Assembly (NCBI GenBank): GCA_016200355.1
Contig: JACQEY010000053.1
Span: forward strand, 425 to 64,424
Length of the DNA stretch: 64,000 nucleotides
Source of the DNA: Nitrospirota bacterium
GTDB lineage: Bacteria > Nitrospirota > Nitrospiria > Nitrospirales > Nitrospiraceae
Reading direction: 5' to 3'
This document shows positions 18,863 through 42,651 of the stretch, piece by piece. The notes under the pieces were generated by a model. The model worked only from the letters and a program-made list of their open reading frames with translations. It had not been told where the DNA came from and did no database searches. Made by a program: the position numbers and the translations under genes. Within the stretch, counting starts at the first letter, position 1; each line of letters opens with the position of its first letter.

Positions 18863-18919
18863 TGACTATTGACCCATGACCGTTGACGTTTATTTACCGT
18901 TGACTGATGACCAATGACC
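18859..18919. repeat. Tandem heptad array NNTTGAC/NNATGAC x7 (T2)
   Basis: cattgac tattgac ccatgac cgttgac gtttatttac cgttgac tgatgac caatgac. It fills the whole spacer between the four-helix-bundle gene ATG and the dapF stop. Confidence 0.85.
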
Positions 18920-18921
18920 TC

Positions 18922-24363: not shown

Positions 24364-24450
24364 GGCTAATTTGGTTCATTTGGTTGATCTGGTTTATTTG
24401 GTTAGCCTGGTTCAACCAAATAGACGAGACAGACCAGATCAACCAGCCCA
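24364..24450. repeat. Nonamer-periodic GGTT/AACC hairpin (copy G2)
   Basis: atttggttc atttggttg atctggttt atttggtta gcctggttc | aaccaaata gacgagaca gaccagatc aaccagccc. Confidence 0.85.
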
Positions 24451-24540: not shown

Positions 24541-24711
24541 CAGGATGCTCAAAAAGGCCGTCCAGCAAGGCCGCAGCCGATGAAAGCACCGGAGGCGTAG
24601 CCTCCGGGCTACGTTGAGGATGCTTTCGAGGTGAGGACGCCGCATGGGAAAATGCGCGTCTCGGCGCGCCGGGGTCGGGCGGGTGAGAAAAGCGACTTTT
24701 TCAGCATCCTG
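24541..24711. mobile_element. MITE-like palindromic element (M3)
   Basis: Terminal inverted repeats caggatgctcaaaaagg / ctttttcagcatcctg. Internal modules are shared with M2 and M5. Confidence 0.75.
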
Positions 24712-25607: not shown

Positions 25608-25706
25608 CTGGGCGATGGGAAATGGACTTACCACCAACGTAGCACGAGTTTCTCTCTCGTGCACCTGTTTGGGATATCGTTTCGGGTGTCGCCCGTCGAG
25701 AAAATA

Positions 25707-27194: not shown

Positions 27195-28750
27195 CGCGAC
27201 GGGCCTTGAGTCATCTGTTGCTCTCCGCTGTCCACCAGCAATGGCGCGGTCCCTCCGGCAGAAAGGTGTGTGGTCGGTGCACCCTTCTCGCGGGACATGG
27301 AGGCAATTGTGTTAGTCACGCTCTGGTGCATTCGACTCACGAACGGATTGGGATAGAGTCCGATCCAAAATATCAATAGAACCAGCGGTACCAGCATGGC
27401 GAGTTCCCGTTGGTCGAGGTCCCTGAGTTTCGGGAGATGGTGCGGGGATGGAGCCCCGAAGACCACTCGCTGGATCATCCAGAGGATATATGCGGCGGCG
27501 AGAATGACGCCCAACGACGCGAAGGCGGTCGCGACCTTGCTCCAGAGAAACGTGCCGACGAGCACGAGGAATTCTCCGACAAAACTATTGGTGCCAGGGA
27601 GACCGAGCGAGGACAAGGCAAAAATCATCAACAGGACCGCATACTGCGGCATCGGCGCAGCCAATCCGGTATTGTCGGCAATCAACCGGCTATGGGTGCG
27701 CTCATAGATGATGCCGACGCAGAGGAACAGTCCGCCAGTCGTAATTCCATGGTTGACCATTTGAAGGACGGCTCCTTCGATGCCCTGTTGGTTTAAGACA
27801 AACAGGCCAAGGGTCACGAACCCCATGTGGCTCACGCTTGAATAGGCGATCAGTTTTTTGAGATCGACTTGGGCCAGCGCCATATAGGCGCCGTAAATGA
27901 TCGCAATGATGGAGAGCGCGACTATCATGGGCGTAAAGATGCGGCTGGCATCAGGCAGCATCGGTAAACTGAATCGCAGGAATCCATAGGTGCCCATTTT
28001 CAGAAGGATGCTGGCGAGGATGACGCTGCCGGCGGTCGGGGCCTCGACGTGGGCGTCCGGGAGCCACGTGTGAAACGGAAACATGGGAACCTTCACCGCA
28101 AAGGCGGCGAAGAATGCCAGGAAGAGCCATGTTTGCAGCGATGCAGGGTAGGTGCCCTGGCTTAAGGCGAGGATGTCGAAGGTGTGCCCTCCGTAAAAGT
28201 AGAGGACAAAAATAGCCACAAGCAGGAGCACACTCCCTGCGAGGGTGTAGAGAAAGAACTTGATCGCCGCATAGAGCAGGTTGGGCCCTCCCCAGACGCC
28301 GATGAGGAGGTACATCGAAATCAGCATGGCCTCCCAAAACACATAGAACAGTATGAAATCCAAGGCGACAAATACCCCCACCATGGCGGTTTCCATCACC
28401 AGCAACACGGCCATGAAGCCCCGGATACTTGTGGTGATCGCATTCCAGGATACCAAGACGCAGAGGGGCATGATCCCGGCGGTCATCAGAACCAGCGGTA
28501 AGCTAATTCCGTCGAGACCCAGACTGTAGTAAATGGGAGGGGACGTGATCCAGGCAACATGTTCGGTGAACTGCATCTGACTGGCCTGTGGATCGAAGAG
28601 CCACCAGAGCGGGAGGGCCACAAACAGGTCGGCCAAGGTTGCGGCCAGCGCAATCCATCGAGCGGCCGACTCTGTCACGAAATACATCGCGACTGCACCC
28701 GCAAGGGGCAGCACGAGAAGAAGTGAGAGCCAGGGAAATGAACTAGTCAT
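27191..28750 (-). CDS. nuoM: NADH-quinone oxidoreductase subunit M
   Basis: Start set at ATG 28750 (MTSSFPWLSLLLVLPL). The 109-aa Arg-rich extension of the raw ORF reads through a hairpin and into the 3' end of nuoL in another frame. Confidence 0.9.
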   Translation of the reverse strand: MTSSFPWLSLLLVLPLAGAVAMYFVTESAARWIALAATLADLFVALPLWWLFDPQASQMQFTEHVAWITSPPIYYSLGLDGISLPLVLMTAGIMPLCVLVSWNAITTSIRGFMAVLLVMETAMVGVFVALDFILFYVFWEAMLISMYLLIGVWGGPNLLYAAIKFFLYTLAGSVLLLVAIFVLYFYGGHTFDILALSQGTYPASLQTWLFLAFFAAFAVKVPMFPFHTWLPDAHVEAPTAGSVILASILLKMGTYGFLRFSLPMLPDASRIFTPMIVALSIIAIIYGAYMALAQVDLKKLIAYSSVSHMGFVTLGLFVLNQQGIEGAVLQMVNHGITTGGLFLCVGIIYERTHSRLIADNTGLAAPMPQYAVLLMIFALSSLGLPGTNSFVGEFLVLVGTFLWSKVATAFASLGVILAAAYILWMIQRVVFGAPSPHHLPKLRDLDQRELAMLVPLVLLIFWIGLYPNPFVSRMHQSVTNTIASMSREKGAPTTHLSAGGTAPLLVDSGEQQMTQGPSR

Positions 28751-28836
28751 CGGTCGATAGTCAACGGGCAATCGGCTTTGGCATGAGAACGGCTGTTCAT
28801 TGTTCCCCTTGACCAGTGACCGTTGACCATTGACGC
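28744..28836. repeat. Heptad-arm hairpin in the nuoL-nuoM spacer
   Basis: Left arm tagtcat cggtcga tagtcaa cgggcaa. Right arm ccttgac cagtgac cgttgac cattgac. The nuoM ATG lies in the first unit. Confidence 0.8.
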
Positions 28837-28839
28837 TCC

Positions 28840-30738
28840 TTATAAGAACAAGAACATCGTAATAAGGACCACGGCCCCAAGCGCCATGCCGAGCGCATAA
28901 TGTTGCGCCTGCCCGCTTTGCGTAAGCCTCAAGAGCCAGCCTCCCCAGGCGATCGCGCGGGCCACGCCGTTCACTGCGCCGTCGACCACGCTCACATCCA
29001 CGCGCTTCCACAGCTCGGTTGCGGCAAAAAAGGTGGGGCGGACGATCGTTCGATCGTAGGCCTCGTCGACATACCATTTATTCAGCGAGGCCCGATACAG
29101 CGACTGCCACTGCTGCGCGAACCGATCCGGCAGCGACGGATTGAGCACATAGACATAATAGGCGCCGGCGATCCCGAGCAATCCCATGCCCGTGGCCACG
29201 ACCATGATGCCGACAGCGGCTCCTCCCTCGTGAGCTGCGCCGCCCGCGTGTGTCTCGAACATCGGTCCAAGAAACTCCGGAATGCCCAGATAGCCTGTGA
29301 CAATGCTGAGCACGGCTAGGATCATCAGCGGGATGGTCATGGCTTTCGACGGTTCATGTATATGGCCTGTGTGATGAGGATCGACATGCGAGGGGCCCCA
29401 AAACGTGACGAAGACCAGCCGGAAACTATAGAACGCCGTCATCAAGGCCGTCACGAGGCCAAGCACGGTGAGAACCTGACCGAGGGGTCCAGCCGACCAG
29501 GCCGAGATCAGCAGATCGTCCTTGCTGAAGAATCCAGACGTCAGGGGGAACCCTGCAAGCGCGAGCGAACCCACCACGAACGTCCAATAGGTAACCGGTA
29601 ATTTGTCCTTCAACCCGCCCATGCGGCGCATGTCCTGCTCGTGATGCAGGGCGATGATGACGGATCCGCAACCGAGAAATAGGAGGGCTTTGAACGCGCC
29701 GTGGGTCAAGAGATGGTACATGCCTGCGGCATAGGCGCCGAGACCGCAAGCCATGATCATGTAGCCGAGCTGGCTGACTGTCGAATAGGCCACAACTCGC
29801 TTGATGTCGGTCTGGGTCAAGGCGATGGTCGCCCCCACAACCATCGTGATCCCACCGGTGATCGCCACGACGGTCATGGCGGTGGGAGACAGGTTGTAGA
29901 GCGGAGCCAATCGCGCGACCATGAACACGCCCGCCGTGACCATCGTCGCAGCATGAATGAGCGCCGAGATGGGGGTGGGGCCTTCCATCGCATCCGGCAA
30001 CCAGACGTGGAGCGGCACTTGGGCCGATTTGCCGATGGCGCCGGTAAACAATAAGACACAGATGAGCGTAAGCACCGAGACGTCCCAGGTTCCTCCGAAC
30101 GGACCGAGGACATTCATGACGTCGCCAGCGGACTCGTGCGCACGGGGGAAAATTTCCTGATAGTCGAGTGATCCGAAGCTATACCAGACCAACAGGAGTC
30201 CAAGCATGAAGCCGAAGTCGCCGACGCGGTTGACGATGAAGGCCTTCGTGGCAGCGGCGCATGCGGTCGGACGGTCGTACCAGTGGCCAATGAGAAAATA
30301 GGAACAGAGGCCGACGGCTTCCCAGAAGACGAAGAGTTGAAGCAGGTTGTCGGCCATGACCAGCATCAGCATCGAGAAGGTAAAGAGCGCGATGTAGCTG
30401 AAGAAGCGGGCATAGCCAGGATCTCCGCGCATGTATCCGATGGTATAGATGTGGACGAGCGAACTCACAGTCGTGACGAGCATCAGCATGACGGCGGTGA
30501 GCCGGTCGACGGAGAAGCCGATGTGAATGTCGAGGGTGTCCGAGGTCAGCCAAGTGTAGAGGGGAAAGCTTGTCTGGTGGCCGCCTGCTACATCGAAGAA
30601 GACTAACAGCGAGAGCAGCCACGACACGAGGACGGCCGGAACGGCGACGAGATGGGCGTTCTCCTTGATCCAATGACCGAAAAGCCCGAGGATCAGGAAT
30701 GAAACCAGCGGAAGGAGTGGAATGAATTCGTAGGTCAT
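28840..30738 (-). CDS. nuoL: NADH-quinone oxidoreductase subunit L
   Basis: ATG at 30738 (MTYEFIPLLPLVSF). The TTG at 30759 lies in the repeat. Typical NuoL length with a C-terminal lateral helix region. Confidence 0.9.
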   Translation of the reverse strand: MTYEFIPLLPLVSFLILGLFGHWIKENAHLVAVPAVLVSWLLSLLVFFDVAGGHQTSFPLYTWLTSDTLDIHIGFSVDRLTAVMLMLVTTVSSLVHIYTIGYMRGDPGYARFFSYIALFTFSMLMLVMADNLLQLFVFWEAVGLCSYFLIGHWYDRPTACAAATKAFIVNRVGDFGFMLGLLLVWYSFGSLDYQEIFPRAHESAGDVMNVLGPFGGTWDVSVLTLICVLLFTGAIGKSAQVPLHVWLPDAMEGPTPISALIHAATMVTAGVFMVARLAPLYNLSPTAMTVVAITGGITMVVGATIALTQTDIKRVVAYSTVSQLGYMIMACGLGAYAAGMYHLLTHGAFKALLFLGCGSVIIALHHEQDMRRMGGLKDKLPVTYWTFVVGSLALAGFPLTSGFFSKDDLLISAWSAGPLGQVLTVLGLVTALMTAFYSFRLVFVTFWGPSHVDPHHTGHIHEPSKAMTIPLMILAVLSIVTGYLGIPEFLGPMFETHAGGAAHEGGAAVGIMVVATGMGLLGIAGAYYVYVLNPSLPDRFAQQWQSLYRASLNKWYVDEAYDRTIVRPTFFAATELWKRVDVSVVDGAVNGVARAIAWGGWLLRLTQSGQAQHYALGMALGAVVLITMFLFL

Positions 30739-30748
30739 CGGAAGTCCA

Positions 30749-30838
30749 GCAATGGTCAATGGTCAATGGTCAATGGTTGAAGCAACAAGCAGTTGTCATT
30801 TCTCTTTACTATTGACCGATGACTATTGACTGTTGACA
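30749..30838. repeat. Heptad-arm hairpin in the nuoK-nuoL spacer
   Basis: Four perfect tandem CAATGGT units (30750-30777). Opposite arm tattgac cgatgac tattgac tgttgac (30810-30837). Confidence 0.9.
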
Positions 30839-30844
30839 TCTGCC

Positions 30845-31150
30845 TCACCATTTCAGCATCTGAAATTCGTCGATGTTGATCGCGGACTTGGCGCGATACA
30901 ACGCAATGATGATAGCCAACCCGACCGCAACCTCTGCTGCGGCGACCGTGAGGGCAAAGAAGACGAAGACTTGCCCTGCGACATCGTGGAAGTACTGCGA
31001 GAAGGCGACGAAGTTGATATTCGTCGCGTTCAACATCAATTCGACCGACAGCAAGATGATGATGATATTCCGACGAAGGAGGACGCCAACGACTCCGGTC
31101 AGGAATACGATGCCGCTCAGCACGAGATAGTAGGACAACGGGACCGTCAT
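30845..31150 (-). CDS. nuoK: NADH-quinone oxidoreductase subunit K
   Basis: 101 aa, three TM helices, position in operon. Confidence 0.9.
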
Positions 31151-31256
31151 GAAACCCTCGTGAAACGTGAAACGTCAAACATCAAACGTGAAACGTCAAA
31201 CGTCAAAAACAGAAGCCGGTCCAAGGCGTTTAACGAATAACGATTCACGCTTCACG
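31151..31256. repeat. Heptad-arm hairpin in the nuoJ-nuoK spacer
   Basis: gtgaaac gtgaaac gtcaaac atcaaac gtgaaac gtcaaac gtcaaaa (31160-31208). Opposite arm gtttaac gaataac gattcac gcttcac (31228-31255), which overlaps the last nuoJ codons. Confidence 0.9.
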
Positions 31257-31760
31257 CTCTCCAACGTCCTTTTTAGCCAGGACGATCGCACCGATCATCG
31301 CCACGAGTAGAATCAAGGACGCCACCTCGAAGGGGAATAAATAGGTGGAATAGAGTACGTCACCGATCGCCCCGGTATTACTGATTCCCCCGACGGTAGT
31401 CTCTGTGCCGGTTGCCACGACAGGAGCTGTCCAGCCCTTCATCACCGTAAGGATGACGGCCTCGATGGCCAGCGTCATCCCCACCGCTGCAGCCGTAGGC
31501 CATTGCCGATGGTACCGGTCATCCTGTCTCAGATTCAGCAACATCACAACGAAGAGGTACAGGACCAAGATGGCGCCGGCATAGACGATGATCTGAACGG
31601 CTGCCAGGAATTCTGCGTGGAGCGTGACATAGAGCCCCGCCACGTGAAAAAACATGACCAGCAGCGCCAATGCGCTGTAGATGGGTTTGCGCACCACGAC
31701 GACGAGCACTGCTGCAGCGGCGATCACGAATGCAAAATAGAAAAAGAACACCTGTTCCAT
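31245..31760 (-). CDS. nuoJ: NADH-quinone oxidoreductase subunit J
   Basis: ATG at 31760 (MEQVFFFYFAFVIAAAAV). Position in operon. Confidence 0.85.
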   Translation of the reverse strand: MEQVFFFYFAFVIAAAAVLVVVVRKPIYSALALLVMFFHVAGLYVTLHAEFLAAVQIIVYAGAILVLYLFVVMLLNLRQDDRYHRQWPTAAAVGMTLAIEAVILTVMKGWTAPVVATGTETTVGGISNTGAIGDVLYSTYLFPFEVASLILLVAMIGAIVLAKKDVGEREA

Positions 31761-31871
31761 CACACGTCTTCCTCTATCGCCTTGATACAAACGGCAAGGT
31801 CGGACAAGCTCCTACCAGGATGCCGCACAGTCTGCCGGCCCACAGACCATCGCATGTGCAACGCGGGCGAT

Positions 31872-32411
31872 TCAGCTGGGTTTTTGCGGCAGGTGCTTAA
31901 ACGCAACGTTGAAGAACGCAACATTCGGGTGTTGGAGCTCCAACTGCTTCTCACGAACCGGGAACGACCGGTCGCCGATGGCGAGCAATTGTTCCTTGTT
32001 GAGATCCAGCTGCCGCTTGTCGTACACCGACCACTCGAATTCGCGCGTCATGCCGAGGGCATCCACCGGACAGGCATCGACACACAACCCACAAAACAGG
32101 CAGCGGGTCATGTCCATGTAATACTCTTTCGCGTAGCGCTTCGTCGGCTCGCCCGGCACTTCCGCGCTGACCACGCGAATTACCCGCGAAGGGCAGGCGG
32201 CTTCGCACAGATCGCAACCGACACACTTTTCTGTCCCGTCGTCATACCGCAACAAGGACAGCATCCCGCGATAGTTGTCCGGCAGCGTCCGCTTTTCGTG
32301 TGGATACTGCAGCGTGACCGACTTGTAGTGCAACATATGTGACATCGTCGCTTTCATCCCGACAAGGATGTCGTAAAAGGTGACGGTCTTGATCCAAGCG
32401 TTGAAAGTCAT
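31872..32411 (-). CDS. nuoI: NADH-quinone oxidoreductase subunit I (2x[4Fe-4S])
   Basis: CVGCDLCEAACP and CLFCGLCVDACP motifs. Confidence 0.95.
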   Translation of the reverse strand: MTFNAWIKTVTFYDILVGMKATMSHMLHYKSVTLQYPHEKRTLPDNYRGMLSLLRYDDGTEKCVGCDLCEAACPSRVIRVVSAEVPGEPTKRYAKEYYMDMTRCLFCGLCVDACPVDALGMTREFEWSVYDKRQLDLNKEQLLAIGDRSFPVREKQLELQHPNVAFFNVAFKHLPQKPS

Positions 32412-32497
32412 GTTGATCTAGTCTGTCTTGTCTATCTGGTTTGTCTAGTTGATTCGATATCTGTGCCTTTTGCCGAAGAAACAAACCAATAACCCGT
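32412..32497. repeat. GGTT/AACC-family hairpin (copy G3) filling the nuoH-nuoI spacer
   Basis: gttgatctagtctgtcttgtctatctggtttgtctagttgattcg ... cgaagaaacaaaccaataacccgttcagac. Confidence 0.8.
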
Positions 32498-33592
32498 TCA
32501 GACCCTCGGAAAGAAATACAGGGTAATGGACGTGATGATGATGTTGGCCAGCGCGATCGGCAACATAACCTTCCATCCGAACCGCATCAGTTGGTCGTAG
32601 CGCAGTCGGGGCAACGTTGCGCGTATCCAGATAAACAGGAAGAGGAAAAAATAGACTTTCGCCGCAAACCAGACGATGTGTTCCACCCAGGCCAGCTGTT
32701 CGAGACCGGCATACTCCAAGATCGTACCAGGATAGGGGGCGTTCCAGCCGCCCAAGAACAGCGCGGCGGCAACGCAAGACACAAGAGTCATGTTGGCGTA
32801 TTCCGCGCTGACGAAAAAGGCGAACCGCATGCCGCTATATTCCGTAAAGAATCCAGCCACGAGTTCGCTTTCAGCCTCCGGCAGATCGAAGGGGATACGA
32901 TTGGTCTCAGCCACGGCAGAAATGATGAAGACCACAAAGGCGAAGATTTGGGTATGAATAGGAAAGAATCCGTCGGGGCGTCCTCCCCAGATGAACCAAT
33001 GCCAGAAGCCACCTGACTGGGCTTCCGTGATCTCCACGAGGCTCAGGGTTCCTGCCAACAGCAGCACGCCGACGATGGCCAGACCGACGTTCAATTCGTA
33101 GCTGATGACCTGGGCCGCGGCGCGCAGGCCTCCCAGCAGTGAGTATTTGCTGTTGGATGCCCAGCCTCCCAGGATAATGCCGTAGGCGCCGATTGAGGCA
33201 ATCGCCAGGATGTACAAGATCCCGATATTGATGTCGGCGACGACGAAGGGTTTGATCCTCATCCCAAAGATGTCCCAGGTCATGTTCGGGCCGAAGGGGA
33301 TGACGGCGAACCCGATCATGGAGACGACCATGGTCAACATCGGCGCCAGGGCGAACATCGCCTTGTTCGCGCCGGCCGGCACGATATCCTCTTTGAAGAA
33401 CAATTTGATGCCATCGGCGACCGGTTGAAGGAGTCCATAGGGGCCGACTTCCATCGGACCCATGCGATCCTGCATCCAGCCGAGCACCTTCCGCTCGAAA
33501 TAGGTCATGGTCGCGACCGTGATCATCACGATGCTCATCTCCGCCAATATCTGGGCAAACGAAACCGCAAGTCGCAAGCTTAGCTCAGTCAC
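32498..33592 (-). CDS. nuoH: NADH-quinone oxidoreductase subunit H
   Basis: 364 aa with YFERKVLGWMQDRMGPMEVGPYGLLQPVADGIKLF. Confidence 0.95.
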   Translation of the reverse strand: MTELSLRLAVSFAQILAEMSIVMITVATMTYFERKVLGWMQDRMGPMEVGPYGLLQPVADGIKLFFKEDIVPAGANKAMFALAPMLTMVVSMIGFAVIPFGPNMTWDIFGMRIKPFVVADINIGILYILAIASIGAYGIILGGWASNSKYSLLGGLRAAAQVISYELNVGLAIVGVLLLAGTLSLVEITEAQSGGFWHWFIWGGRPDGFFPIHTQIFAFVVFIISAVAETNRIPFDLPEAESELVAGFFTEYSGMRFAFFVSAEYANMTLVSCVAAALFLGGWNAPYPGTILEYAGLEQLAWVEHIVWFAAKVYFFLFLFIWIRATLPRLRYDQLMRFGWKVMLPIALANIIITSITLYFFPRV

Positions 33593-33641
33593 AACGACAC
33601 TCCCGGATCACAGGTGAAACACACCATTGGTTCTCGTCCAC

Positions 33642-34079
33642 TCACGTCGTTTTCATCACCGACACGGACGCCGTCCGATAGGATGGGACCTTTGTGTCCT
33701 GATCGATGACACAGTCAAAGAGTTGCAGAGCCTCCTGCGCGAAATGATCGGGGAGCCAAGCCAAGCCCTCGGGCACGCGATCGAATACTTTCGCCGTGGT
33801 CGTAAACTCGCCTCGGCTGTTCGAGAGACGGACTTGATCCCCGGCACTGAGGCCGTATCGGGCTGCATCCAGAGGATTCATCTGCACGGACCCGCTCGGT
33901 TCGATCTGCAATAGTCCCTTCGAATAGGTCGACAGCTTCCCTGAATGGAACAGGCTCTGGACCAGCCCCAGCTGGACCGTTCCCTCCGGACGCACGGCTC
34001 GCGCGGGCAGAGTATACCGAGTTGCAATGTCATGGCGATATCCCTCATGCACGTATCGGTCGACGGCGGCAGGATTCAC
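33642..34079 (-). CDS. nuoG: NuoG C-terminal fragment (molybdopterin-dinucleotide-binding-like domain), separate ORF
   Basis: LVQSLFHSGKLSTYSKGL...VQMNPLDAARYGLSAGDQVRLSNSRGEFTTTAKV is the beta-barrel domain that normally ends NuoG. GTG start overlaps the upstream TGA (GTGA). This frame stays open for at least 40 codons upstream. Confidence 0.7.
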   Translation of the reverse strand: MNPAAVDRYVHEGYRHDIATRYTLPARAVRPEGTVQLGLVQSLFHSGKLSTYSKGLLQIEPSGSVQMNPLDAARYGLSAGDQVRLSNSRGEFTTTAKVFDRVPEGLAWLPDHFAQEALQLFDCVIDQDTKVPSYRTASVSVMKTT

Positions 34080-36187
34080 TGCGGGAGGGATCGGCGATGG
34101 GCCGAGCGACCCACCGGATTGATCGCGGGCCGAACGGCCTGGACGTGGCCCTCGGTATTGGTAAAGGTCCCGGCTTTCTCCATGGCGGAAGCGGCCGGGA
34201 GCACCACATGGGCGAGCGCAGCCGTTTCAGTGAGAAACAGTTCCTGGCACACAAGGAGATCGAGTTTACCCAGCGCCTCTTTGACTCCGGTCTGGGGCGG
34301 AAGACTCCCGACAGGATTTTCTCCGACGACGAAGAGACCTTTGATGATCCCAGCTTGCGCTCGGTCAATCATTTCGATGAGCGTGGCCCCTTCCGCCAAC
34401 GGGAGATCCTCTTTCCAGACACGAGTGATCTGCGCGCGCGCATCCTGATCGGTGAGGTCGAGCGCGCCAGGCAACAGTGCCGCGACCGCCCCCATTTCCA
34501 CCGCCCCTTGATCGTTATTCTCTTCCGCCAAGGGAGCAAAGCCGCATCCCTGTGCAGTCAACCTCCCGGTCAAGAGGAGCAGGTCCATGAGATTGAGACA
34601 GATACCGTAGCCGCCTTGGCTGCGCAATAGAGTCTGGCCTGCAAGCGCGACGACACGACGGCCTCCGGCCAGGGAGGCAGCCATCTGGACGAACGATTCG
34701 CGCGACACCCCGGTGCTCAGAGCCAGATCGTCCCACGTCAGTCGCTCGACTGCTTGGGAGACAGCCGAAACATAGTCCGGCATCCGTTGCCGAATAGTAC
34801 TGTCGACATGGTTGTCCTCGACTATCGCCTTCAACAGGCCCAGAACTGCGGCGCCGAACTGAGACGGCGCCACACAGACATGTTGCTGCGACAGGTTGGA
34901 AATGTTGCTGATCGTGCCGACTGCGGGTTGGATCGCCTCAATCGTCAACAATGTCGCGTCGTATTTCTTGACGGCTTCTTTTACTTTAAGTCCGGTAATC
35001 GGATTGGTCTCGGTGATATTGGTGCCAACCAGGAGGAGCACGTCCGCTTGCACGATGTCCTCGAACGTCACGGTCCAGCGATGCGTGCCTTGCACGGATC
35101 GCATGGCCTGCACCCCGTTGATATGGCCGTACCGCGCGCTGCTGTCGAGATTATTGGTCCCGATCGTGAGGCGCATGAACTTCTGGAACAGATAGAGCTC
35201 TTCGTTGGTACAGCGGCCGGAGATCAGTCCGCCGAAGGCCTGTGGGCCATGCGCTAACTTGAGCCGGTTGGTCTGTTCGGCTACAAACACCAATGCCTCT
35301 TCCCACGTGGCTTGCACCAGCACGCCGTTCCGCCTGATCAGCGGATGGGTCACTCGGCTTGGATGGCTCGCCGCGCGAAATCCAAAAAACCCTCGTGCGC
35401 AAAGATCCCCGCTGTTCCGACCGGCGCCCTGGGCACTGTTCACTTCGATCAACTCCTGGTCCTTGGTTTGGACCGTGATCTGGCAGCCGTCCCCGCAAAA
35501 CATGCAGACGGTATCGGCTCGTTTAAGCATCCAGGGACGGTATTCGTACATCGAGAGGCGGCTGGTGATGGCGCCGACCGGGCAAATCTGTACGCAACCG
35601 CCGCAGAATTCACAGTCCAGGGGATGGGCGCCGAAGGACTTGATCTCGGTCATTGTGCCTCGTCCAATTGGGGCGAGAGCCTTGACGTCCATGACCTCGT
35701 CGCAGTAGCGGACGCAGCGCAAACATTGCACGCAACGGTTCATCTGCGTTTCGATCAGGGGACTGAAATACTCTTTCTGGAAAATGCGCTTGGTTTCCTC
35801 AAACCGGCTGGTCGCGGTGTATTGATGAGAAAAATCCTGGAGGTCGCACTTGCCGCCCTGATCGCAAACCGGACAGTCCAGCGGATGGTTGGCCAGAATG
35901 AATTCGAGCACCGACTTGTGAGCATTGTGAACGACCGTCGTGGCAGTTCGAACAGCCATGCCTTCGGTCGCCACGGTGCTGCAAGAGGTCTGGAGTTTCG
36001 GCATCCTTTCGACCTCAACCAAGCACATACGGCAGTTCGCATCCGGCTTGAGTTTCGGATGGTAGCAGAAGTGCGGAACCATCACGCCGACCAGGCGAGC
36101 GGCTTCGATCACCAGCGTGCCTTTCGGCACCGAGATGGAAATACCATCGATCGTCAAGCGGACGGTCTCTGTGGTGGTCTTACGCAT
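34076..36187 (-). CDS. nuoG: NADH-quinone oxidoreductase subunit G, N-terminal 703 aa (2Fe-2S, 4Fe-4S and molybdopterin-like domains)
   Basis: RLTIDGISISVPKGTLVIEAA, CYHPKL...CRMCLVEV, and FeS Cys clusters. Ends 10 residues after the conserved TFTNTEGHVQAVRPAINPVG. Confidence 0.9.
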   Translation of the reverse strand: MRKTTTETVRLTIDGISISVPKGTLVIEAARLVGVMVPHFCYHPKLKPDANCRMCLVEVERMPKLQTSCSTVATEGMAVRTATTVVHNAHKSVLEFILANHPLDCPVCDQGGKCDLQDFSHQYTATSRFEETKRIFQKEYFSPLIETQMNRCVQCLRCVRYCDEVMDVKALAPIGRGTMTEIKSFGAHPLDCEFCGGCVQICPVGAITSRLSMYEYRPWMLKRADTVCMFCGDGCQITVQTKDQELIEVNSAQGAGRNSGDLCARGFFGFRAASHPSRVTHPLIRRNGVLVQATWEEALVFVAEQTNRLKLAHGPQAFGGLISGRCTNEELYLFQKFMRLTIGTNNLDSSARYGHINGVQAMRSVQGTHRWTVTFEDIVQADVLLLVGTNITETNPITGLKVKEAVKKYDATLLTIEAIQPAVGTISNISNLSQQHVCVAPSQFGAAVLGLLKAIVEDNHVDSTIRQRMPDYVSAVSQAVERLTWDDLALSTGVSRESFVQMAASLAGGRRVVALAGQTLLRSQGGYGICLNLMDLLLLTGRLTAQGCGFAPLAEENNDQGAVEMGAVAALLPGALDLTDQDARAQITRVWKEDLPLAEGATLIEMIDRAQAGIIKGLFVVGENPVGSLPPQTGVKEALGKLDLLVCQELFLTETAALAHVVLPAASAMEKAGTFTNTEGHVQAVRPAINPVGRSAHRRSLPQ

Positions 36188-36199
36188 GGTTCTGTTGAC

Positions 36200-37504
36200 T
36201 CAATGTCTTACCGCCGGCTCCAGCTTGATCAGGTTCGCTGCCTCCGCTTCCTGAATCAATGTGACGTATTCAGACCGCCAATGTTTGAGCGTGCTCATAA
36301 TCGGCGCCACTTCTGCCTCGCCGAAGGCGCAAACCGTTCGACCCTCGATGTTCTTGCATAGATCGACCAAGGTTTCAAGATCTTCCATCCGCCCCCGCTT
36401 CGCGACAATTCGGCGCATGGTTTGTACCAGCCAGGAGCTTCCCTCTCGACAGGGGCTGCACTTGCCGCAGGACTCATGATAGAAAAACTCCATGAGGCGA
36501 AGCGCGGCCCACACGATGTCCGTACCCTCTTCCATCACCGTCACCCCGCCGGAGCCGAGCATGGAGCCGGCGGCGGCAACAGATTCAAAATCGAGCTTGA
36601 CGTCGAGGTGGTTCGGCGTGAGGAATGGCGCGGACGCCCCTCCTGGGATGAAGGCCTTGAGCGATTTGTCGGAGCGCATGCCTCCGGCATGCTCGTAAAT
36701 CAATTCGCGGAAGGTGACCCCCATCGGCACTTCGTAGTTCCCCGGCTGCTTCACATGGCCGCTGACGCAGAACACTCTGGTGCCGGTGCTCTTCGGTGGG
36801 GAACCGATCGACGCGAACCATTCGGGGCCCCGGACCACGATGTGAGGAAGGTTGGCCAGGGTCTCGATGTTGTTCACCACGGTCGGTTTGTTGTAGAGAC
36901 CGTTTGTCGCCGGGAAGGGGGGCTTGAAGCGCGGCAGGCCGCGTTTGCCTTCGAGCGACTCCAATAATGCCGTTTCTTCTCCGCAGATATAGGCTCCGGC
37001 GCCTCGGTGCACCCACACATTGACGGTGATGCCTGCGCCCAGGATATTCGAGCCGATATAGCCGGCGGTCCGCGCTTCGGCAATCGCCTGTTCCAAAATC
37101 TTGGCTCCGAGGACGAATTCGCCCCGTATATAAATGTAGGCGGTTTCTGATCCGATCGCGTAGCAGGCGAGCAAGATGCCTTCCAAGATCTGATGGGGAT
37201 CTCGCTCAATGAGCTGGCGGTCCTTGAACGTGCCTGGCTCACTTTCGTCGGCATTACAACAGAGGTACTTCGGACCTATATAGTCCTTCGGGAGAAAATT
37301 CCACTTCAAGCCGGTCGGGAAGCCTGCGCCGCCCCGCCCCCGAAGCCCTGACTTCATCACCATGCCGGTGACCCCGGCCGGCGGCACCTTCCCCACGACC
37401 TTGCGGAGCGCCTGATAGCCGCCTGCGCGCTCGTAATCGTGGAGCGAGCCGGTATAGCCTGGCTCCATCATATTCTTGAGCAATATCAGTTCGTGCTTGG
37501 GCAT
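36200..37504 (-). CDS. nuoF: NADH-quinone oxidoreductase subunit F
   Basis: GLRGRGGAGFPTGLKW, CNADESEPGTFKDR, ESCGKCSPCREG. Confidence 0.95.
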   Translation of the reverse strand: MPKHELILLKNMMEPGYTGSLHDYERAGGYQALRKVVGKVPPAGVTGMVMKSGLRGRGGAGFPTGLKWNFLPKDYIGPKYLCCNADESEPGTFKDRQLIERDPHQILEGILLACYAIGSETAYIYIRGEFVLGAKILEQAIAEARTAGYIGSNILGAGITVNVWVHRGAGAYICGEETALLESLEGKRGLPRFKPPFPATNGLYNKPTVVNNIETLANLPHIVVRGPEWFASIGSPPKSTGTRVFCVSGHVKQPGNYEVPMGVTFRELIYEHAGGMRSDKSLKAFIPGGASAPFLTPNHLDVKLDFESVAAAGSMLGSGGVTVMEEGTDIVWAALRLMEFFYHESCGKCSPCREGSSWLVQTMRRIVAKRGRMEDLETLVDLCKNIEGRTVCAFGEAEVAPIMSTLKHWRSEYVTLIQEAEAANLIKLEPAVRH

Positions 37505-37513
37505 GACGTTCCG

Positions 37514-37585
37514 AATTAAAAAAGTGAAATTAAAAATGCAAAATGGCCGGCCAAATATTTCATTTTACATTTCTCATTTTTCATT
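37514..37585. repeat. AT-rich heptad-arm hairpin in the nuoE-nuoF spacer
   Basis: aaaagtg aaattaa aaatgca aaatggc | tttcatt ttacatt tctcatt tttcatt. The right arm overlaps the nuoE stop. Confidence 0.85.
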
Positions 37586-38107
37586 GCGCATCGGCGCCTC
37601 CGGCCACATAAACGGGCCGGTCTTGAGCGAACAGGTCCCGTGTTGTTTGAGATCGGCCAGGATTCGGTCGAACGTTTGCTCTGTGAGCCGTTCGTAATAG
37701 TCGTCATTGACCTGCATCATCGGCGCGGTACCACAGGCGGCGAGGCATTCGACCGCGTTGAGGGTAAAGAGTCCGTCGGTCGTTGTCTCGCCCAGTCCGA
37801 TTCCGAGTTTCGTTTTGACCCACTCGACGACCGTATCCGACCCGGCCAGCGCGCACATCAGGGACTTACAAACTTGAAGATGAAACTTCCCCACGCGTTT
37901 GAGATTGATCATCGTATAGAACGTGGCCGTCTCATAAACTTGGGGCGGGGTCAGACGCAAGAGCCCCGCGATCTCCTTCATCGCCGCTTCGGACACGAAG
38001 CCCTCGTCCCGTTGCGCCAGGTAGAGCAAGGGAATCAGCGCCGAGCGCCTCACCGGATAGCGTGAGATGATCTCGTCAATTTCTTTCTGGTATTTCTCTT
38101 TCAACAT
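37574..38107 (-). CDS. nuoE: NADH-quinone oxidoreductase subunit E
   Basis: 177 aa, thioredoxin-like 2Fe-2S: LQVCKSLMCAL...ECLAACGTAPMMQVN. Confidence 0.95.
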   Translation of the reverse strand: MLKEKYQKEIDEIISRYPVRRSALIPLLYLAQRDEGFVSEAAMKEIAGLLRLTPPQVYETATFYTMINLKRVGKFHLQVCKSLMCALAGSDTVVEWVKTKLGIGLGETTTDGLFTLNAVECLAACGTAPMMQVNDDYYERLTEQTFDRILADLKQHGTCSLKTGPFMWPEAPMRNEK

Positions 38108-38180
38108 TCCACTTCCTCAACGGTGAGGCGACGGGGTGATGGAGCCCACTGCGCGCGAGCACGAGGGCATCCTCCTTCCC

Positions 38181-39932
38181 TCACCTATCACATTCTCCCA
38201 TCACGACGTCGTACGTTCCGAAGATCGTGATGATGTCGGAAATCAGATAGCCCCGCGCCATGTGGTCGAAGGCGCCCATGTGTACGAATGACGGCGCGCG
38301 AATCTTCAGCCTGTAAGGGCGGGGGCTGCCGTCGCTGACGATAAAAAATCCCAACTCGCCCTTTGGGGCCTCAGTCGCGCAATAGGTCTCGGCCTTCGGC
38401 GGCTTGATGCCCTGGGTGTAAATGATGAAATGATGGATCAAGCTTTCCATGTCCCGCATGACCAATTCCTTGGGCGGCGGGATATATTGAGGCGCCTCGG
38501 CCATGATCGGCCCAGCAGGCAGTTGATCGAGACATTGTGCGATGATCCTGGCGCTCTGCCGCATTTCTTCCATGCGGATCCAGTATCGGTCGTAGGTATC
38601 GCCGTTTCTGCCAATCGGCACGTCCCATTCGACTTTGTCGTACACGCCGTAAGGCTCGGCCTTGCGGACATCGTAGGCGACACCCGACCCTCGCAAGACC
38701 GGCCCGGTGCAGCCGAAGCTGATCGCATCTTCGGCTGAGAGCAGGGCCACATTCTTCGTGCGGCCGAGCCAGATGCGGTTCGATGCGATGAGCGAATCGT
38801 ATTCCTTGACCTTCTCGGGAAAGATATCGAGGAACGCCTTCATCCGTTGGACCAACTCGGGGGTGAAGTCGCTATCGACACCGCCGATACGATAGTAGTT
38901 CAGGGTCAGGCGGGCTCCACAGAGTTTTTCGAACATGTCTAACAGTATTTCGCGCTCCCGGAAGGTCCAGAAGAACACGGTCATGGCGCCGATATCGAGA
39001 GCTTGCGTACCGAGCCAAAAGAGATGCCCGATGATGCGTTGCATCTCAGCCACGATGGTCCGGATATATTCGGCCCGGATCGGCACCTCGATCTCGAGGA
39101 GTTTTTCTACGGCACGCACGTATGCGTAGTTGTTGGACATGGCACAGACATAGTCGAGCCGGTCCGTGTGCGGGATGATCTGCATATAGGTCAGACCCTC
39201 GGACAATTTCTCGACACCTCGATGCAGGTAACCGAGGTCCGGCGTGGCTTTCACAATCCGTTCGCCGTCCAATAAAAGCACGACACGCAACACGCCGTGG
39301 GTGCTCGGATGCTGCGGCCCCATGTTCAGCAGCAATTCCTCTTTCCGTTGAGAAGCAGGTACGCCGGTCTCGACGCGATAGAAAACTTTCTGCTCCTCAG
39401 GAATTTCGCTCTCGATGACGTCGACCGAGGCCTCATCGAATCTCGGAATAAAGTCGAACTGGCTGCGCCAGCCACGCCCCTCGGTCGGAAAGTCCTTTCT
39501 CAACGGGTATCCCTCGGTATAATCCTCCGGCATCAGAATACGCCGGAGATCAGGATGACCGGAAAAATGAATGCCCATCATGTCGTACACTTCTCGTTCC
39601 AGGAAGTCGGCTCCCTTCCAGACTCCAGTAACTGAAGCAATCGTCGGGTCATCCTCGGTGATACGCGCCTTGAGGCGAAGACGCTGTTGAAGGGGGAGTG
39701 AGTGCAAGTGATAGACGACTTCGAATCGCCGCTGATCTTCGGGATAGTCGACCGAACAGATATCGGTGAGATGGTCGAAGCCTGCCTCCGGCGCATCGTG
39801 CAAGTAGCGAGCAATCTCCAGCAGACGCGTAGCGGTCACGGAGACAGAGGTCTCGGCACGTGCGGCATCAACGCGGGTCGCGAGGATCGCGTCCGGGAAT
39901 TTCGTCTTCAGGTTATCGAGCAGTGCTTTCAT
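38181..39932 (-). CDS. nuoCD: Fused NADH-quinone oxidoreductase subunits C and D
   Basis: 583 aa. N-terminal 30-kDa (NuoC) region (DICSVDYPE...RFEVVYHL) is continuous with the 49-kDa (NuoD) region (NMGPQHPSTHGVLR ... ends VMGECDR). Confidence 0.9.
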   Translation of the reverse strand: MKALLDNLKTKFPDAILATRVDAARAETSVSVTATRLLEIARYLHDAPEAGFDHLTDICSVDYPEDQRRFEVVYHLHSLPLQQRLRLKARITEDDPTIASVTGVWKGADFLEREVYDMMGIHFSGHPDLRRILMPEDYTEGYPLRKDFPTEGRGWRSQFDFIPRFDEASVDVIESEIPEEQKVFYRVETGVPASQRKEELLLNMGPQHPSTHGVLRVVLLLDGERIVKATPDLGYLHRGVEKLSEGLTYMQIIPHTDRLDYVCAMSNNYAYVRAVEKLLEIEVPIRAEYIRTIVAEMQRIIGHLFWLGTQALDIGAMTVFFWTFREREILLDMFEKLCGARLTLNYYRIGGVDSDFTPELVQRMKAFLDIFPEKVKEYDSLIASNRIWLGRTKNVALLSAEDAISFGCTGPVLRGSGVAYDVRKAEPYGVYDKVEWDVPIGRNGDTYDRYWIRMEEMRQSARIIAQCLDQLPAGPIMAEAPQYIPPPKELVMRDMESLIHHFIIYTQGIKPPKAETYCATEAPKGELGFFIVSDGSPRPYRLKIRAPSFVHMGAFDHMARGYLISDIITIFGTYDVVMGECDR

Positions 39933-40002
39933 AATTCCAGTTCGCGAGACGGGCGCAACTTGCGGGACTTGCCTGTCCCGCCTCTCTCGCTCATCTCGCG
40001 GT

Positions 40003-40482
40003 TCATCTCACAAACACCTTTTCCCGCTGAATCTTTTCCTGTAATTTCAGTAATCCATCGAGCAATGCTTCCGGACGGGGCGGACAGCCCGGCACATAGA
40101 CATCGACTGGAATAATCTGATCGACGCCTTGAACCACCGCGTAACTATTGTAGTGGTTGCCTGAAGTGGCGCAGGAGCCCATAGAAATGACATATCGCGG
40201 TTCCGGCATCTGGTCATAGATGCGGCGGATCACCGGCGCCATCTTACGCGTCACAGTGCCGGCAATGATCATGAGGTCGGCTTGCCGCGGTGAGGCTCGA
40301 AAGACACCGGCGCCGAAACGATCCAAGTCGTACCGCGACGACACAGTCGCAATCATTTCGATGGCGCAGCAGGCCAGGCCGAACGTCATCGGCCACAAAG
40401 CCGATTTTCTGGACCAATTCACGACTGCATCCAGATTGGTCGTCAGAATGTTCGCCTCAAACTGTCTCTCCAGAAAACTCAT
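40003..40482 (-). CDS. nuoB: NADH-quinone oxidoreductase subunit B
   Basis: [25 protein letters not shown]. Confidence 0.95.
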
Positions 40483-40520
40483 CTGTTCTTATTTTCCTCT
40501 CTCTCACCACGCATCGATTG

Positions 40521-40616
40521 GGACGGGTGGCCTGGTCGGCTCCCATTGCGCGCATCGAGCGAGCACATTCTGATCGTGCGCGCTCTGCGAGCACAGGAGT
40601 CGACCAGGCTTCCCGT
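40521..40616. repeat. ~95-nt dyad-symmetric element N1 in the nuoA-nuoB spacer
   Basis: Outer stem ggacgggtggcctggtcg / cgaccaggcttcccgtcc. Apical hairpin gagcgagcac-attctgatc-gtgcgcgctc. The 20-mer cgagcacattctgatcgtgc (40560-40579) recurs inverted at 42499-42518. Confidence 0.8.
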
Positions 40617-40621
40617 CCATC

Positions 40622-40993
40622 CTAGTCCCATTCGAGCGCCCCCTTCTTCCAGGCGTACCAGAATCCGGCCAGCAGGATGCCGATAAATACGAGCATCTCG
40701 ATGAGGCCCAACAGGCCGAGCGACTGAAACCGGATGGCCCAGGGGATCATAAAAATGACCTCGATATCGAAAACGACGAACAGCATTGCGATGATATAGT
40801 ACCGCATCGGAAACTGGATGCGCGCATCGGAAAACAGCGGGCTTCCGCTTTCATAGGGGGCCCGCTTGGCTCGATAGGGACGACTCGGCCGGATGAACGA
40901 GCCGACGAGCAGCGCGCCGCCGATGGCGACAACGGCGATGCCGATAAACACCAAGATCGGCAGATAATTCAGCGGAACCGATTCGCCACCCAT
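40622..40993 (-). CDS. nuoA: NADH-quinone oxidoreductase subunit A
   Basis: 123 aa with YESG...F..RYYIIAMLFVVFDIEVIF. Confidence 0.9.
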   Translation of the reverse strand: MGGESVPLNYLPILVFIGIAVVAIGGALLVGSFIRPSRPYRAKRAPYESGSPLFSDARIQFPMRYYIIAMLFVVFDIEVIFMIPWAIRFQSLGLLGLIEMLVFIGILLAGFWYAWKKGALEWD

Positions 40994-41002
40994 CAGTAAC
41001 CC

Positions 41003-41091
41003 CTATGGTTGATGGTTAATGGTAGATGGTGCATGGCAGGGCCGTGCTCATAAATTTTCATCAGCCATTTTCCATCAACCATTATCCATTC
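41003..41091. repeat. Heptad-arm hairpin between midA-like gene and nuoA
   Basis: ctatggt tgatggt taatggt agatggt gcatggc | gccattt tccatca accatta tccattc. The right arm overlaps the midA-like stop. Confidence 0.85.
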
Positions 41092-42260: not shown

Positions 42261-42462
42261 AAGGAACTCCTCTTATCCCATCGACAACACAAGAAAAGTG
42301 ACAGCACGAGCCGAGGATAGACCCCACCCCTCCCCCTTGAAGGGCCAAAAGAGAGGAAAAAGTGGCCTAGGTTAGTTTTGATATTAGCCTTGATTTTGCA
42401 GCTAAGTCAAGGCGAAGAGTATTGGAAACTCAGGCAAATCTCCCGATTCGAGAGGGACGGGG

Positions 42463-42557
42463 AATGACACCCGTGCCGATCCCTTGCTCCCGGAACACGC
42501 ACGATCAGAATGTGCTCGTTCGACGGCCGCAGTGGGACCAGCACGGGTGCCATTCCT
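42463..42557. repeat. Dyad element N2 (inverted copy of N1) upstream of midA-like gene
   Basis: Outer stem ggaatgacacccgtgc / gcacgggtgccattcc. Apical region gaacacgcac-gatcagaat-gtgctcgttc. The central ~60 nt are homologous to N1 in reverse complement. Confidence 0.8.
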
Positions 42558-42651
42558 GGAGAGAAAAACAAGCGAGCTTGGAAGGATCATTTTGCATATC
42601 GATTGACCGATTTTCGATCAGGCGGTAACGTAGCCTACCGAAGGAGAGATT

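Follow-up and report, generated by a model that had tools for sequence, protein, structure and literature searches.

Background

The heptameric short tandemly repeated repetitive (STRR) sequences of heterocystous cyanobacteria are reportedly the subject of Jackman & Mulligan 1995 (doi 10.1099/13500872-141-9-2235), and effects of repetitive extragenic palindromic (REP) sequences on mRNA stability, attenuation and translation of the upstream gene are said to have been described by Newbury in 1987, Espeli in 2001 and Liang, Rudd & Deutscher in 2015. According to the accessible text of PMC2670836, 7-bp STRR repeats that form hairpins are 'not unusual' in filamentous cyanobacteria, e.g. in the hupS-hupL spacer, with transcript stability or translational coupling as proposed roles. 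In MacGregor 2015 (PMC4679880), direct heptamer repeats, TAACTGA among them, are reported to precede start codons in Beggiatoaceae, cyanobacteria and Bacteroidetes; the accessible part of that paper lists one indirect repeat among about 170 heptamer sets and summarises a survey that ranks heptanucleotides first in abundance among the long simple repeats (5-11 nt) of prokaryotes. The mgtC-mgtB spacer of Salmonella contains an intergenic small open reading frame (ORF) that opens a stem-loop for translation of the next gene, as far as the accessible text of PMC8092293 goes. The present analysis concerns hairpins with arms of tandem 7-nt units, which fill spacers of the nuo operon, encoding complex I, and other intergenic regions in 64 kb of DNA from a Nitrospira-type bacterium (the window; all coordinates are window positions). 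No description of Nitrospira with heptamer or STRR repeats was found in the searched literature.

These fillers are probably STRR-like palindromes of tandem repeats, made and remodelled at the level of DNA and tolerated because they fold. They occupy intergenic DNA generally, not nuo in particular, and effects on mRNA stability or coupling would likely be incidental.

Arrays and hairpins in the nuo spacers

The window contains a 14-subunit operon, nuoA-N, on the minus strand, from nuoA (40622-40993) to nuoN (25707-27194), with a midA-like methyltransferase gene (41082-42260, minus strand) upstream of nuoA. Spacers, named here after the subunits that they connect, are unusually large: midA-A 88, A-B 139, B-CD 70, CD-E 73, E-F 69, H-I 86, I-J 111, J-K 94, K-L 106 and L-M 89 nt. 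NuoH is at most 77% identical to species-representative genomes, with top matches among Nitrospira, Nitrospiraceae and Nitrospirota metagenome-assembled genomes (MAGs), and NuoK has many relatives at 92-97% identity, labelled Nitrospira or Nitrospirota. About 30 orthologous nuo operons were collected via NuoK homologs (NuoL identity 89-97%); these relatives are numbered L###. Arrays were detected with Tandem Repeats Finder, and folds were calculated in mRNA sense and scored as z against shuffles. The J-K and K-L sequences occur at 99.9% identity in independent assemblies, therefore these two are not an assembly artefact.

A preliminary description of this DNA had reported a hairpin, one arm a tandem array and the other an array of the complementary unit, in each of the six spacers L-M, K-L, J-K, H-I, E-F and midA-A. 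The arrays lie where it placed them: Tandem Repeats Finder detects period-7 arrays in five of the six, and H-I has period 9. The period-7 arrays are the following:

28809-28834, period-7 array
30750-30777, period-7 array of CAATGGT, 4.0 copies, 100% match
30808-30837, period-7 array
31159-31207, period-7 array, 7.0 copies, 88% match
31240-31258, period-7 array
37558-37585, period-7 array
41005-41030, period-7 array
41065-41090, period-7 array

Runs of self-match of at least 80% over 28 nt occur seven times at period 7 and not once at periods 5, 6, 8, 10 or 11. The window holds 15 period-7 arrays in its 64 kb, compared with 30 in 1.15 Mb of unrelated nuo loci.

As hairpins, four of the six spacers (L-M, K-L, J-K and midA-A) fold better than their shuffles and two do not: H-I reaches z -1.25, with 23 of 200 shuffles equally good, and E-F z -0.68, with 50 of 200. 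The four significant stems consist of 4-7 bp helices alternating with symmetric internal loops of 1-3 nt, a pattern repeated every 7 nt. The fillers, together with a seventh hairpin between nuoB and nuoCD, are:

28744-28839 (spacer 28751-28839), minus strand, nuoL-nuoM filler, seen in arrays, fold and orthologs; folding free energy (dG) -35.4 kcal/mol, z -2.9
30739-30844, minus strand, nuoK-nuoL filler, seen in arrays and fold; dG -32.0 kcal/mol, z -2.4
31151-31259, minus strand, nuoJ-nuoK filler, seen in arrays and fold; dG -42.8 kcal/mol, z -3.7
32412-32497, minus strand, nuoH-nuoI filler, decayed 9-mer hairpin with units TTTGGTTTN / NAAACCAGA
37505-37585, minus strand, nuoE-nuoF filler, seen in arrays; weak fold
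40994-41090, minus strand, midA-like-nuoA filler, seen in arrays and fold; dG -33.3 kcal/mol, z -2.3
39933-40002, minus strand, nuoB-nuoCD hairpin; dG -37.4, z -5.4

In L-M, the mRNA-sense 5' arm (28806-28836) is composed of GTCAATG/GTCAACG/GTCACTG/GTCAAGG units and the 3' arm (28744-28772) of TTGAC-type units, the last of which includes the nuoM ATG (28750-28748). Orthologs of this filler are present in L089-92 and L106-109, while L083-88, L095-105 and L001 possess an empty site of 6 nt. The perfect (CAATGGT)4 array of K-L (30750-30777) is the start-proximal 3' arm in mRNA sense and pairs against four variant TTGAC/ATGAC units (30808-30837); this spacer is empty (2-10 nt) in L095-100, L001 and L006 and holds different unit families in other strains. 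J-K has seven GTTTCAC/GTTTGAC units in its 3' arm (31157-31209), and its GTGAAGC/GTGAATC arm (31230-31259) holds the TGA stop and the final four codons of nuoJ. The J-K filler is absent, leaving an ATGA overlap, in the closest relatives L106-110 and also in L084, L095 and L101.

H-I has a best 42-nt identity at lag 9 of 0.67, belongs to the same 9-mer family as two hairpins outside the operon (16453-16532 and 24369-24445), and is matched by an intact 9-mer hairpin at the same site of L104. E-F consists of real A/T-rich heptads, with AATGAAA-type units that enter the 3' end of nuoE opposite CATTTTT-type units, and its ortholog in L090 is shorter by 14 nt. In midA-A, NNATGGT arrays (41005-41036) lie opposite CCATNNN arrays (41054-41090), and the midA stop falls within the latter. 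The B-CD hairpin is a short member of the GCGAGNN / TCTCGCN family, which has 3-4 units and 9-nt unit indels in relatives. Strong hairpins are also present in A-B (z -5.5) and CD-E.

Turnover among related operons

Among the strains, every spacer is found both filled and empty, the flanking proteins being 90-97% identical. K-L measures 106-159 nt (e.g. 106, 115, 154, 157) or is empty at 10, 4 or 2 nt; J-K measures 94 or 77 nt or is a 4-nt ATGA overlap; L-M measures 89 or 6 nt and F-G 92, 12 or 2 nt. Spacers that are empty among such close strains speak against a conserved role in setting subunit stoichiometry, which had been proposed from the window by itself. Where a spacer is filled, the filler is almost always a hairpin.

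Periodicity was summarised over 55 non-redundant spacer fillers. Self-match is 0.366 at lag 7, 0.354 at lag 14 and 0.295 at lag 21, against 0.24-0.27 at other lags, and lag 7 gives the highest value in 30 of the 55. The heptad fillers have a median fold z of -2.21, with z below -2 in 24 of 45.

The elements are 60-160 nt long, and their 7-nt (at times 9-nt) unit combines a core of 4-5 nt with 2-3 variable bases. At least eight unit families are present, and one spacer holds different families in different strains. Families that recur across spacers are GTGAAAC, GTCAANN, GATGAAC, a TATGGC/TATAGC 14-mer, CTCAGCA, TTAACGN, TCTCGCA and the 9-mer TTTGGTTTC. This diversity bears out the earlier view that the fillers are not copies of one REP or miniature inverted-repeat transposable element (MITE) sequence. 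The stronger argument, that differing units exclude spread, holds by half: the same families, and sometimes the same order of unit variants, recur in different spacers and genomes (CD-E of L103 and K-L of L085 are 72% identical over 81 nt). Loops are mostly site-specific. A single metagenome scan with the loop pattern common to the two GTCAA paralogs of the window gave only orthologous sites and one chance match, which leaves whole-element mobility of the GTCAA subfamily unsupported.

Close orthologs differ by distinct indels of 7 nt (seven cases), 9 nt (six), 14 nt (three), 18 nt (two), 21 nt (one) and 28 nt (two), those of 9 and 18 nt belonging to 9-nt families. Off-unit lengths are represented by one indel each of 6 and 8 nt and by none of 5, 10, 12 or 13 nt. 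At K-L, three CATTGAG units are present in L106 and two in L109. The start-proximal arm of this spacer reads (CATTGAC)4 in the window, whereas L106-110 have (CATTGAG)2-3 there: one base change has been homogenised across all units. The J-K unit is of GTGAAAC type in some strains and of GTGATGN type in others, with both arms altered together: six of 23 pairs are changed on both sides, and the GTGA/TCAC core is invariant every 7 nt. Unit-length indels, homogenised arms and joint change of the arms together point to slippage and concerted evolution acting in place. Local slippage as the generator, and a unit that drifts while the architecture is kept, had both been raised as possibilities in the preliminary description, and the ortholog alignments agree with it in either respect.

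Junctions of filled versus empty sites have neither the target-site duplication nor the conserved termini of a MITE; instead, flanking codons are replaced.

Merging with gene ends and start codons

The arms extend into the final codons and the stop of the upstream ORF, which often ends within the first arm, so that its last 3-6 residues are altered. NuoJ ends in ...GEREA or ...AVNSEG where J-K is filled and in ...GEPAKS where it is empty, and the NuoE tails VRRET, VKREA and RNEK are found among strains, each directly followed by the stop. On the other side of the spacer, nuoM begins with ATGAC(T/C)AGT (MTSS) in filled and with ATGCATAGC (MHSGG) in empty loci. Within the GTCAA family, the ATG and first codons of the next gene come from the final CAATGAC unit of the second arm, and uvrC, nuoM and dapF have a common ATGAC start within the terminal unit. 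The sequence thus agrees with what had been read from the window regarding the ATGs of nuoM and uvrC, which both lie in (C)AATGAC, and the stops of nuoJ, nuoE and midA, which lie in an arm; nuoL, nuoM and uvrC likewise have no obvious Shine-Dalgarno sequence immediately upstream. Start-proximal arrays terminate 0-25 nt upstream of the ATG.

In L084 and L101, the entire midA-A hairpin, here of GGCAAGG/CCTCTAG type, is translated as a C-terminal extension of MidA (416 vs 392 aa). Some NuoK entries of JGI contigs (P0052, P0075, P0083 and others) are 128-136 aa long, compared with 101 aa; these overlong database calls presumably read through the J-K array.

The predicted outermost helix covers about the entire spacer, which would place the stop of one gene and the start of the next at the base of one stem. 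The fraction spanned by the outer helix is 0.84 in real spacers and 0.70 in shuffles.

Polarity

The two arms are not equivalent. The 3' (start-proximal) arm has the greater regularity in 24 cases versus 5 (p=2e-4), and the 5' arm is the richer in purines in 27 versus 4 (p=2e-5). The two halves also differ in G-C skew (+0.086 for the 5' half, -0.074 for the 3' half; p=3e-5) and in the mean number of sense-strand stop triplets (2.72 for the 5' half, 1.88 for the 3' half), and mismatch positions comprise 32 G·G versus 6 C·C. The orientation is consistent: a G- and purine-rich, stop-rich arm comes first, and a C-rich, regular arm stands beside the start codon. Polarity and the surplus of G·G over C·C imply a strand-specific factor, a point taken up below. 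GC skew of the window is too weak to separate transcription-linked from replication-linked polarity.

Heptad-arm hairpins are also found in four of about 70 unrelated nuo loci, with stems of -23 to -62 kcal/mol:

8094-8178 of L042, I-J spacer of a Methylophilaceae MAG
2041-2130 of L052, upstream of nuoA in a Burkholderiales MAG
11589-11738 of L071, I-J spacer of a Desulfobacteraceae MAG
11530-11576 of L055, I-J spacer of another deltaproteobacterial MAG

The G-rich arm comes first in all four. At the Methylomirabilis locus L008, heptad arrays are present but form no convincing stem. The hairpins in other phyla demonstrate that the architecture is not limited to Nitrospira and cyanobacteria; as the sample was built around nuoH, these cases are uninformative on specificity for nuo.

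Elements outside the nuo operon

Within the 64 kb of the window there are 8-10 element sites. Those outside nuo adjoin uvrC, dapF, a glyoxalase gene, a brkB-like gene and the gene of an intervening sequence protein (IVP):

18361-18466, minus strand, IVP gene-uvrC hairpin of the GTCAA/TTGAC family; z -1.9; uvrC ATG in the final CAATGAC unit
19814-19916, minus strand, glyoxalase gene-dapF hairpin of the GTCAA/TTGAC family; dG -41.8, z -5.9
18858-18925, minus strand, GTCAA direct arrays (mRNA sense) without complementary arm, upstream of the IVP gene
16453-16532, no strand assigned, near-perfect hairpin of the 9/18-mer family in the convergent spacer of a FadL-like gene and uvrC; dG -45.9, z -8.2
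24369-24445, minus strand, second hairpin of the 9-mer family, downstream of the brkB-like gene; z -3.9

The glyoxalase-dapF and IVP-uvrC copies are paralogous, with 83% identity over 96 nt, loop included. The direct arrays at 18858-18925 represent the outer portion of the 5' arm of the hairpin, from which the IVP insertion has separated them.

The IVP gene itself (18458-18862, minus strand) encodes 134 aa of the 23S-rRNA-intervening-sequence-protein family (PF05635) and is inserted within the 5' arm of the dapF-uvrC heptad hairpin, with junctions at about 18862-18875 and about 18445-18460. The relative L113 lacks the gene and has a continuous array. The window, L114 and L115 possess it, with GTCAATAGTCA duplicated on both flanks; the flanking duplication of the cassette is 11 nt long. 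The ATG of the IVP gene is created at the insertion junction (GTCA|ATGG, the bar marking the junction).

Over all loci, 27 of 117 intergenic regions are array-positive, compared with 2 of 514 coding tiles. The heptad sites within the window are all co-directional. In relatives, a 452-aa gene and an M50 peptidase gene converge on a spacer that contains heptad hairpins. Array-positive regions make up 15 of 69 co-directional and 12 of 48 convergent or divergent spacers in all loci (p=0.82); the gene model behind this count was a crude one built on ORFs, which assigns some nuo spacers to the wrong class. The comparison of intra- with inter-operon spacers that the preliminary description had recommended thus gives no enrichment, and with genuine convergent-spacer cases at hand, specificity for operon interiors finds no support. 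Punctuation of the nuo operon in particular, as claimed there, is contradicted by the same elements at the glyoxalase, dapF, IVP and uvrC spacers and at the convergent pair of relatives.

Tests for function at the RNA level

Mismatch positions include 29 G·U and 38 A·C, i.e. no excess of G·U. The mean difference of dG between sense and antisense is +0.10, the sense strand folding better in 22 fillers and the antisense strand in 23. With neither a G·U excess nor a folding advantage of the sense strand, tuning at the RNA level is rejected.

An ORF that begins no more than 25 nt past the upstream stop and extends over 80% or more of the spacer is present in 32 of 82 fillers, versus 7.0 in dinucleotide shuffles; in the heptad subset the same criterion gives 21 of 45 versus 3.9 expected. 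The antisense control shows a frame that is at least 85% open in 43 sense and 41 antisense of 59 fillers, and stop density is 4.39 per 100 nt in sense and 4.08 in antisense. Since the antisense strand is just as open, the excess of small ORFs is a by-product of the periodic palindromic architecture, and bridging small ORFs are rejected as evidence of selection. The lack of any G·U or sense-strand advantage and the loss of the small-ORF excess against antisense make the complementarity look made in DNA and not tuned in the transcript.

Rfam 15 gives no match at gathering score on either strand of the 64-kb window. No spacer hairpin is listed in a scan for intrinsic terminators of 25000-43000, and the stems run to the next start codon. 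Promoter-like matches at the hairpins are lacking.

Other repeats and neighbouring genes

A separate GC-rich, non-periodic palindrome family (…GTGCTCGCGCAACGCGCG…CGCGCGCAGT…) is located in A-B (40483-40621) and CD-E (38108-38180) and in many strains (L084, L095, L101-L108). Between these two spacers the copies share 79% identity over 108 nt. In L108 one copy lies nested in the loop of another, which makes the family look truly mobile.

The CTCAGCA unit, which forms an A-B hairpin in L083, L085, L086 and L091, is also found as an array of 5.4 copies (1157-1194) inside a 692-aa ORF (63-2141) without Pfam match, where its in-frame translation is a low-complexity stretch (…SALSTQHSKLSTR…). The hairpins 7433-7485 (22 nt of perfect complementarity, 9-nt loop) and 9921-9986 have the arm TCAGGTAGATAGGCTGAAG in common and represent a small palindromic family beside response-regulator genes. 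A G+C-rich repeat (…GGGTCGGGCGGGTGAGAA.AGCGAC…) occurs as an inverted repeat with 60-nt arms (53132-53324), near 24650 (24640-24700) and in the I-J spacer of L095.

In the operon, nuoG (33642-36187) is split into ORFs of 703 and 145 aa in different frames, while relatives have a single ORF of 888-889 aa. About 40 residues of L106 (DSRPDWEILSALS...IPGYG) are missing at about 34076-34100, and the deletion is not a multiple of 3. The split nuoG could be a real pseudogene, a split gene or an assembly error.

A convergent pair of a LuxI-type autoinducer synthase gene (13432-13989, plus strand) and a gene for an autoinducer-binding LuxR-type regulator (14074-14901, minus strand) adjoins several two-component system genes, including one for a 1509-aa histidine kinase with multiple PAS/GAF domains.

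Origin, tolerance and rival explanations

STRR-like fillers of this kind would originate by replication slippage in unit lengths, with arrays now and then copied from arm to arm or from site to site. Within the polycistronic mRNA, a filler would form one long interrupted stem with the upstream stop and the downstream start at its base, and by keeping the two together it could make insertions tolerable within tightly coupled operons. As intercistronic stem-loops the fillers may act incidentally in the manner of REP sequences, as exonuclease barriers or modulators of coupling. The orientation suggests a selective filter on the insertions that survive; candidates for this filter are prompt termination of the upstream ORF, the avoidance of C-rich RNA that is transiently single-stranded and would load Rho, or both.

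Several points weigh against this account. The span of the outermost helix is just modestly above that of shuffles, and every RNA-level effect is an inference. Fillers at the same site may be orthologous, which brings the effective sample for polarity nearer to 15 than to 32. Polarity and the G·G surplus leave a purely neutral account at the DNA level incomplete. The initial formation of a complementary second arm was not observed. Whole-element transposition may fit arms that share their order of unit variants across sites, and the GC-rich palindromes that share these spacers are clearly mobile, as a nested copy attests. The evidence base is a single operon neighbourhood and 64 kb.

In that alternative the hairpins are non-autonomous elements resembling MITEs or REPINs (hairpin-forming REP doublets), copied whole by a transposase or a REP-associated tyrosine transposase (RAYT) encoded elsewhere, with the heptads as recognition sites of the enzyme. 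It accommodates the filled and empty spacers, the families and variant order common to different sites (CD-E of L103, K-L of L085), the two window copies with 83% identity over 96 nt including the loop, and the nesting seen in the GC-rich family of A-B and CD-E. We nevertheless consider it unlikely: at least eight unit families would demand as many recognition specificities, loops are site-specific and the loop scan of metagenomes led to orthologous sites plus one chance match, and the junctions of filled and empty sites have neither target-site duplications nor conserved termini. The window ORFs scanned contain no transposase or Y1 domain, and indels of unit length indicate growth in place.

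Explanations that place the function in the transcript fare worse. Selected punctuation of the complex I operon, by processing or stability signals or by translational gates that set stoichiometry, was the suggestion of the preliminary description. Strong stems in most nuo spacers, stop and start codons within or beside the arms, an orientation that is consistent relative to transcription, and heptad hairpins in the nuo spacers of the unrelated L042, L052, L055 and L071 are in its favour. It becomes improbable given that every spacer is empty in some close relative (J-K even in the nearest), that the elements occur just as much outside nuo, and in a convergent spacer, and that there is no G·U excess, no sense-strand folding advantage and no Rfam family. 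A relay of translational coupling by a small ORF, running from just past the upstream stop through the hairpin to the downstream start (ATGA), would explain the counts of 32 of 82 and 21 of 45 against 7.0 and 3.9 in shuffles, as well as the AAGGAG that precedes an ATG in L-M, where three diverged versions have a frame that terminates in the nuoM ATGA. The antisense strand is as open (43 vs 41 of 59), and the class of -4 overlaps is favoured by the search criterion, since the downstream genes natively begin with ATGA, which renders the relay very doubtful. That the arrays are binding sites for a protein of cold-shock or S1-domain type, reading single-stranded nucleic acid in 7-nt steps, a role already suggested for the direct TAACTGA repeats, is scarcely to be expected with many unrelated units, most arrays predicted to be paired, no candidate protein and no unit conserved at any given site. 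The strict 7-nt phasing, the more regular start-proximal arm, the unpaired arrays between dapF and the IVP gene of the window and in midA-A of L083, and the heptamer binding of CspB cited in the accessible text of PMC4679880 are the observations that such a protein would account for.

The reading as STRR-like, DNA-made palindromes can be extended, tentatively, beyond this lineage. Heptad-arm hairpins could constitute a widespread, unnamed and self-renewing class of intergenic element, generated by a 7-nt slippage intrinsic to replication and by strand switching, of which only one orientation is retained, preserving termination-reinitiation and avoiding the loading of Rho inside operons. Such hairpins are seen in Nitrospirota, Betaproteobacteria, Deltaproteobacteria and possibly NC10, and cyanobacterial cases are already known.

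If the preferred account is correct, Nitrospira, which are key nitrifiers, carry dynamic repeat palindromes that repeatedly reshape operon spacers and even the terminal codons of essential genes, such as those of NuoJ, NuoE, NuoM and MidA. Gene calling is affected, as in the NuoK of 128-136 aa in some JGI contigs and the MidA of 416 instead of 392 aa, and so is the interpretation of operon expression; the spacers lend themselves to strain typing, as with STRR-PCR in cyanobacteria. The comparative set displays slippage by the unit, concerted change of the arms and a rule of orientation that also applies to the four hairpins of other phyla, and it makes a general question testable, namely what renders an insertion between translationally coupled genes tolerable. 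Were the retention of one orientation true, polarity would be a readable signature of such tolerance. No new regulatory system for complex I is revealed. The feature is real, well delimited, ordinary in kind and new for the lineage, and polarity is its one unexplained regularity.

Comparison with known systems

REP sequences, bacterial interspersed mosaic elements (BIMEs) and REPINs (PMC3116915) resemble the present elements as short intergenic palindromes in and between operons that form hairpins as DNA or RNA. REP families possess a conserved sequence and a cognate RAYT, and their arms are not tandem arrays (PMC3116915). A conserved palindrome of 20-40 nt of the REP type is absent here, where only a short unit is common and loops and unit order mostly differ between sites, and no RAYT is encoded among the window ORFs scanned. 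With the mgtC-mgtB spacer, as the accessible text of PMC8092293 presents it, the fillers have in common a long structured intercistronic spacer that sequesters the start region of the next gene; evidence of a translated small ORF is lacking here, since the antisense control removes the signal.

The TAACTGA repeats of PMC4679880, in the part of the text available, are likewise intergenic heptamers that end a few nt before start codons, often of genes without canonical ribosome-binding site. Their arrays contain stop codons in all frames, and the corresponding feature here is the greater regularity of the start-proximal array. They are single direct arrays of one unit in that text, in contrast to the mostly paired arrays of many units described here. 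Unpaired arrays of TAACTGA type are few (18858-18925, and midA-A in L083); most arrays are paired with a complementary one, and their units are other than TAACTGA. The simple-repeat survey, as summarised in the same accessible text, shares with our data the preference for 7 nt and growth by slippage, here seen in indels of 7, 14, 21 and 28 nt; it deals with direct arrays, and paired complementary hairpin arrays fall outside the description quoted.

The closest counterpart is STRR. Common to both are 7-nt tandem units, hairpins between the cistrons of operons, and spacers that vary between close strains yet remain structured, and probably also the dispersal of few families in intergenic DNA; the window unit TGGTCAA is one base off TTGGTCA, the STRR unit as quoted in the preliminary description. 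Heptanucleotide tandem repetition and intercistronic hairpins of the hupS-hupL type are both found in the fillers. The analogy drawn there was apt. Its statement that no paired arrays of complementary heptads had been described does not hold for cyanobacteria, from which PMC2670836 reports STRR hairpins. The differences concern the host, which is a member of Nitrospirota, and complementary pairing, which is the rule here. Merging with stop and start codons, an indel spectrum in unit lengths and G-arm-first polarity are shown here and unreported for STRR in the accessible text of PMC2670836. We file the elements as STRR-like and not as STRR because the host is a member of Nitrospirota and not a heterocystous cyanobacterium (NuoEFG are present). 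The architecture is already known; added here are a host phylum, turnover across a clade, merging with gene ends and a rule of orientation.

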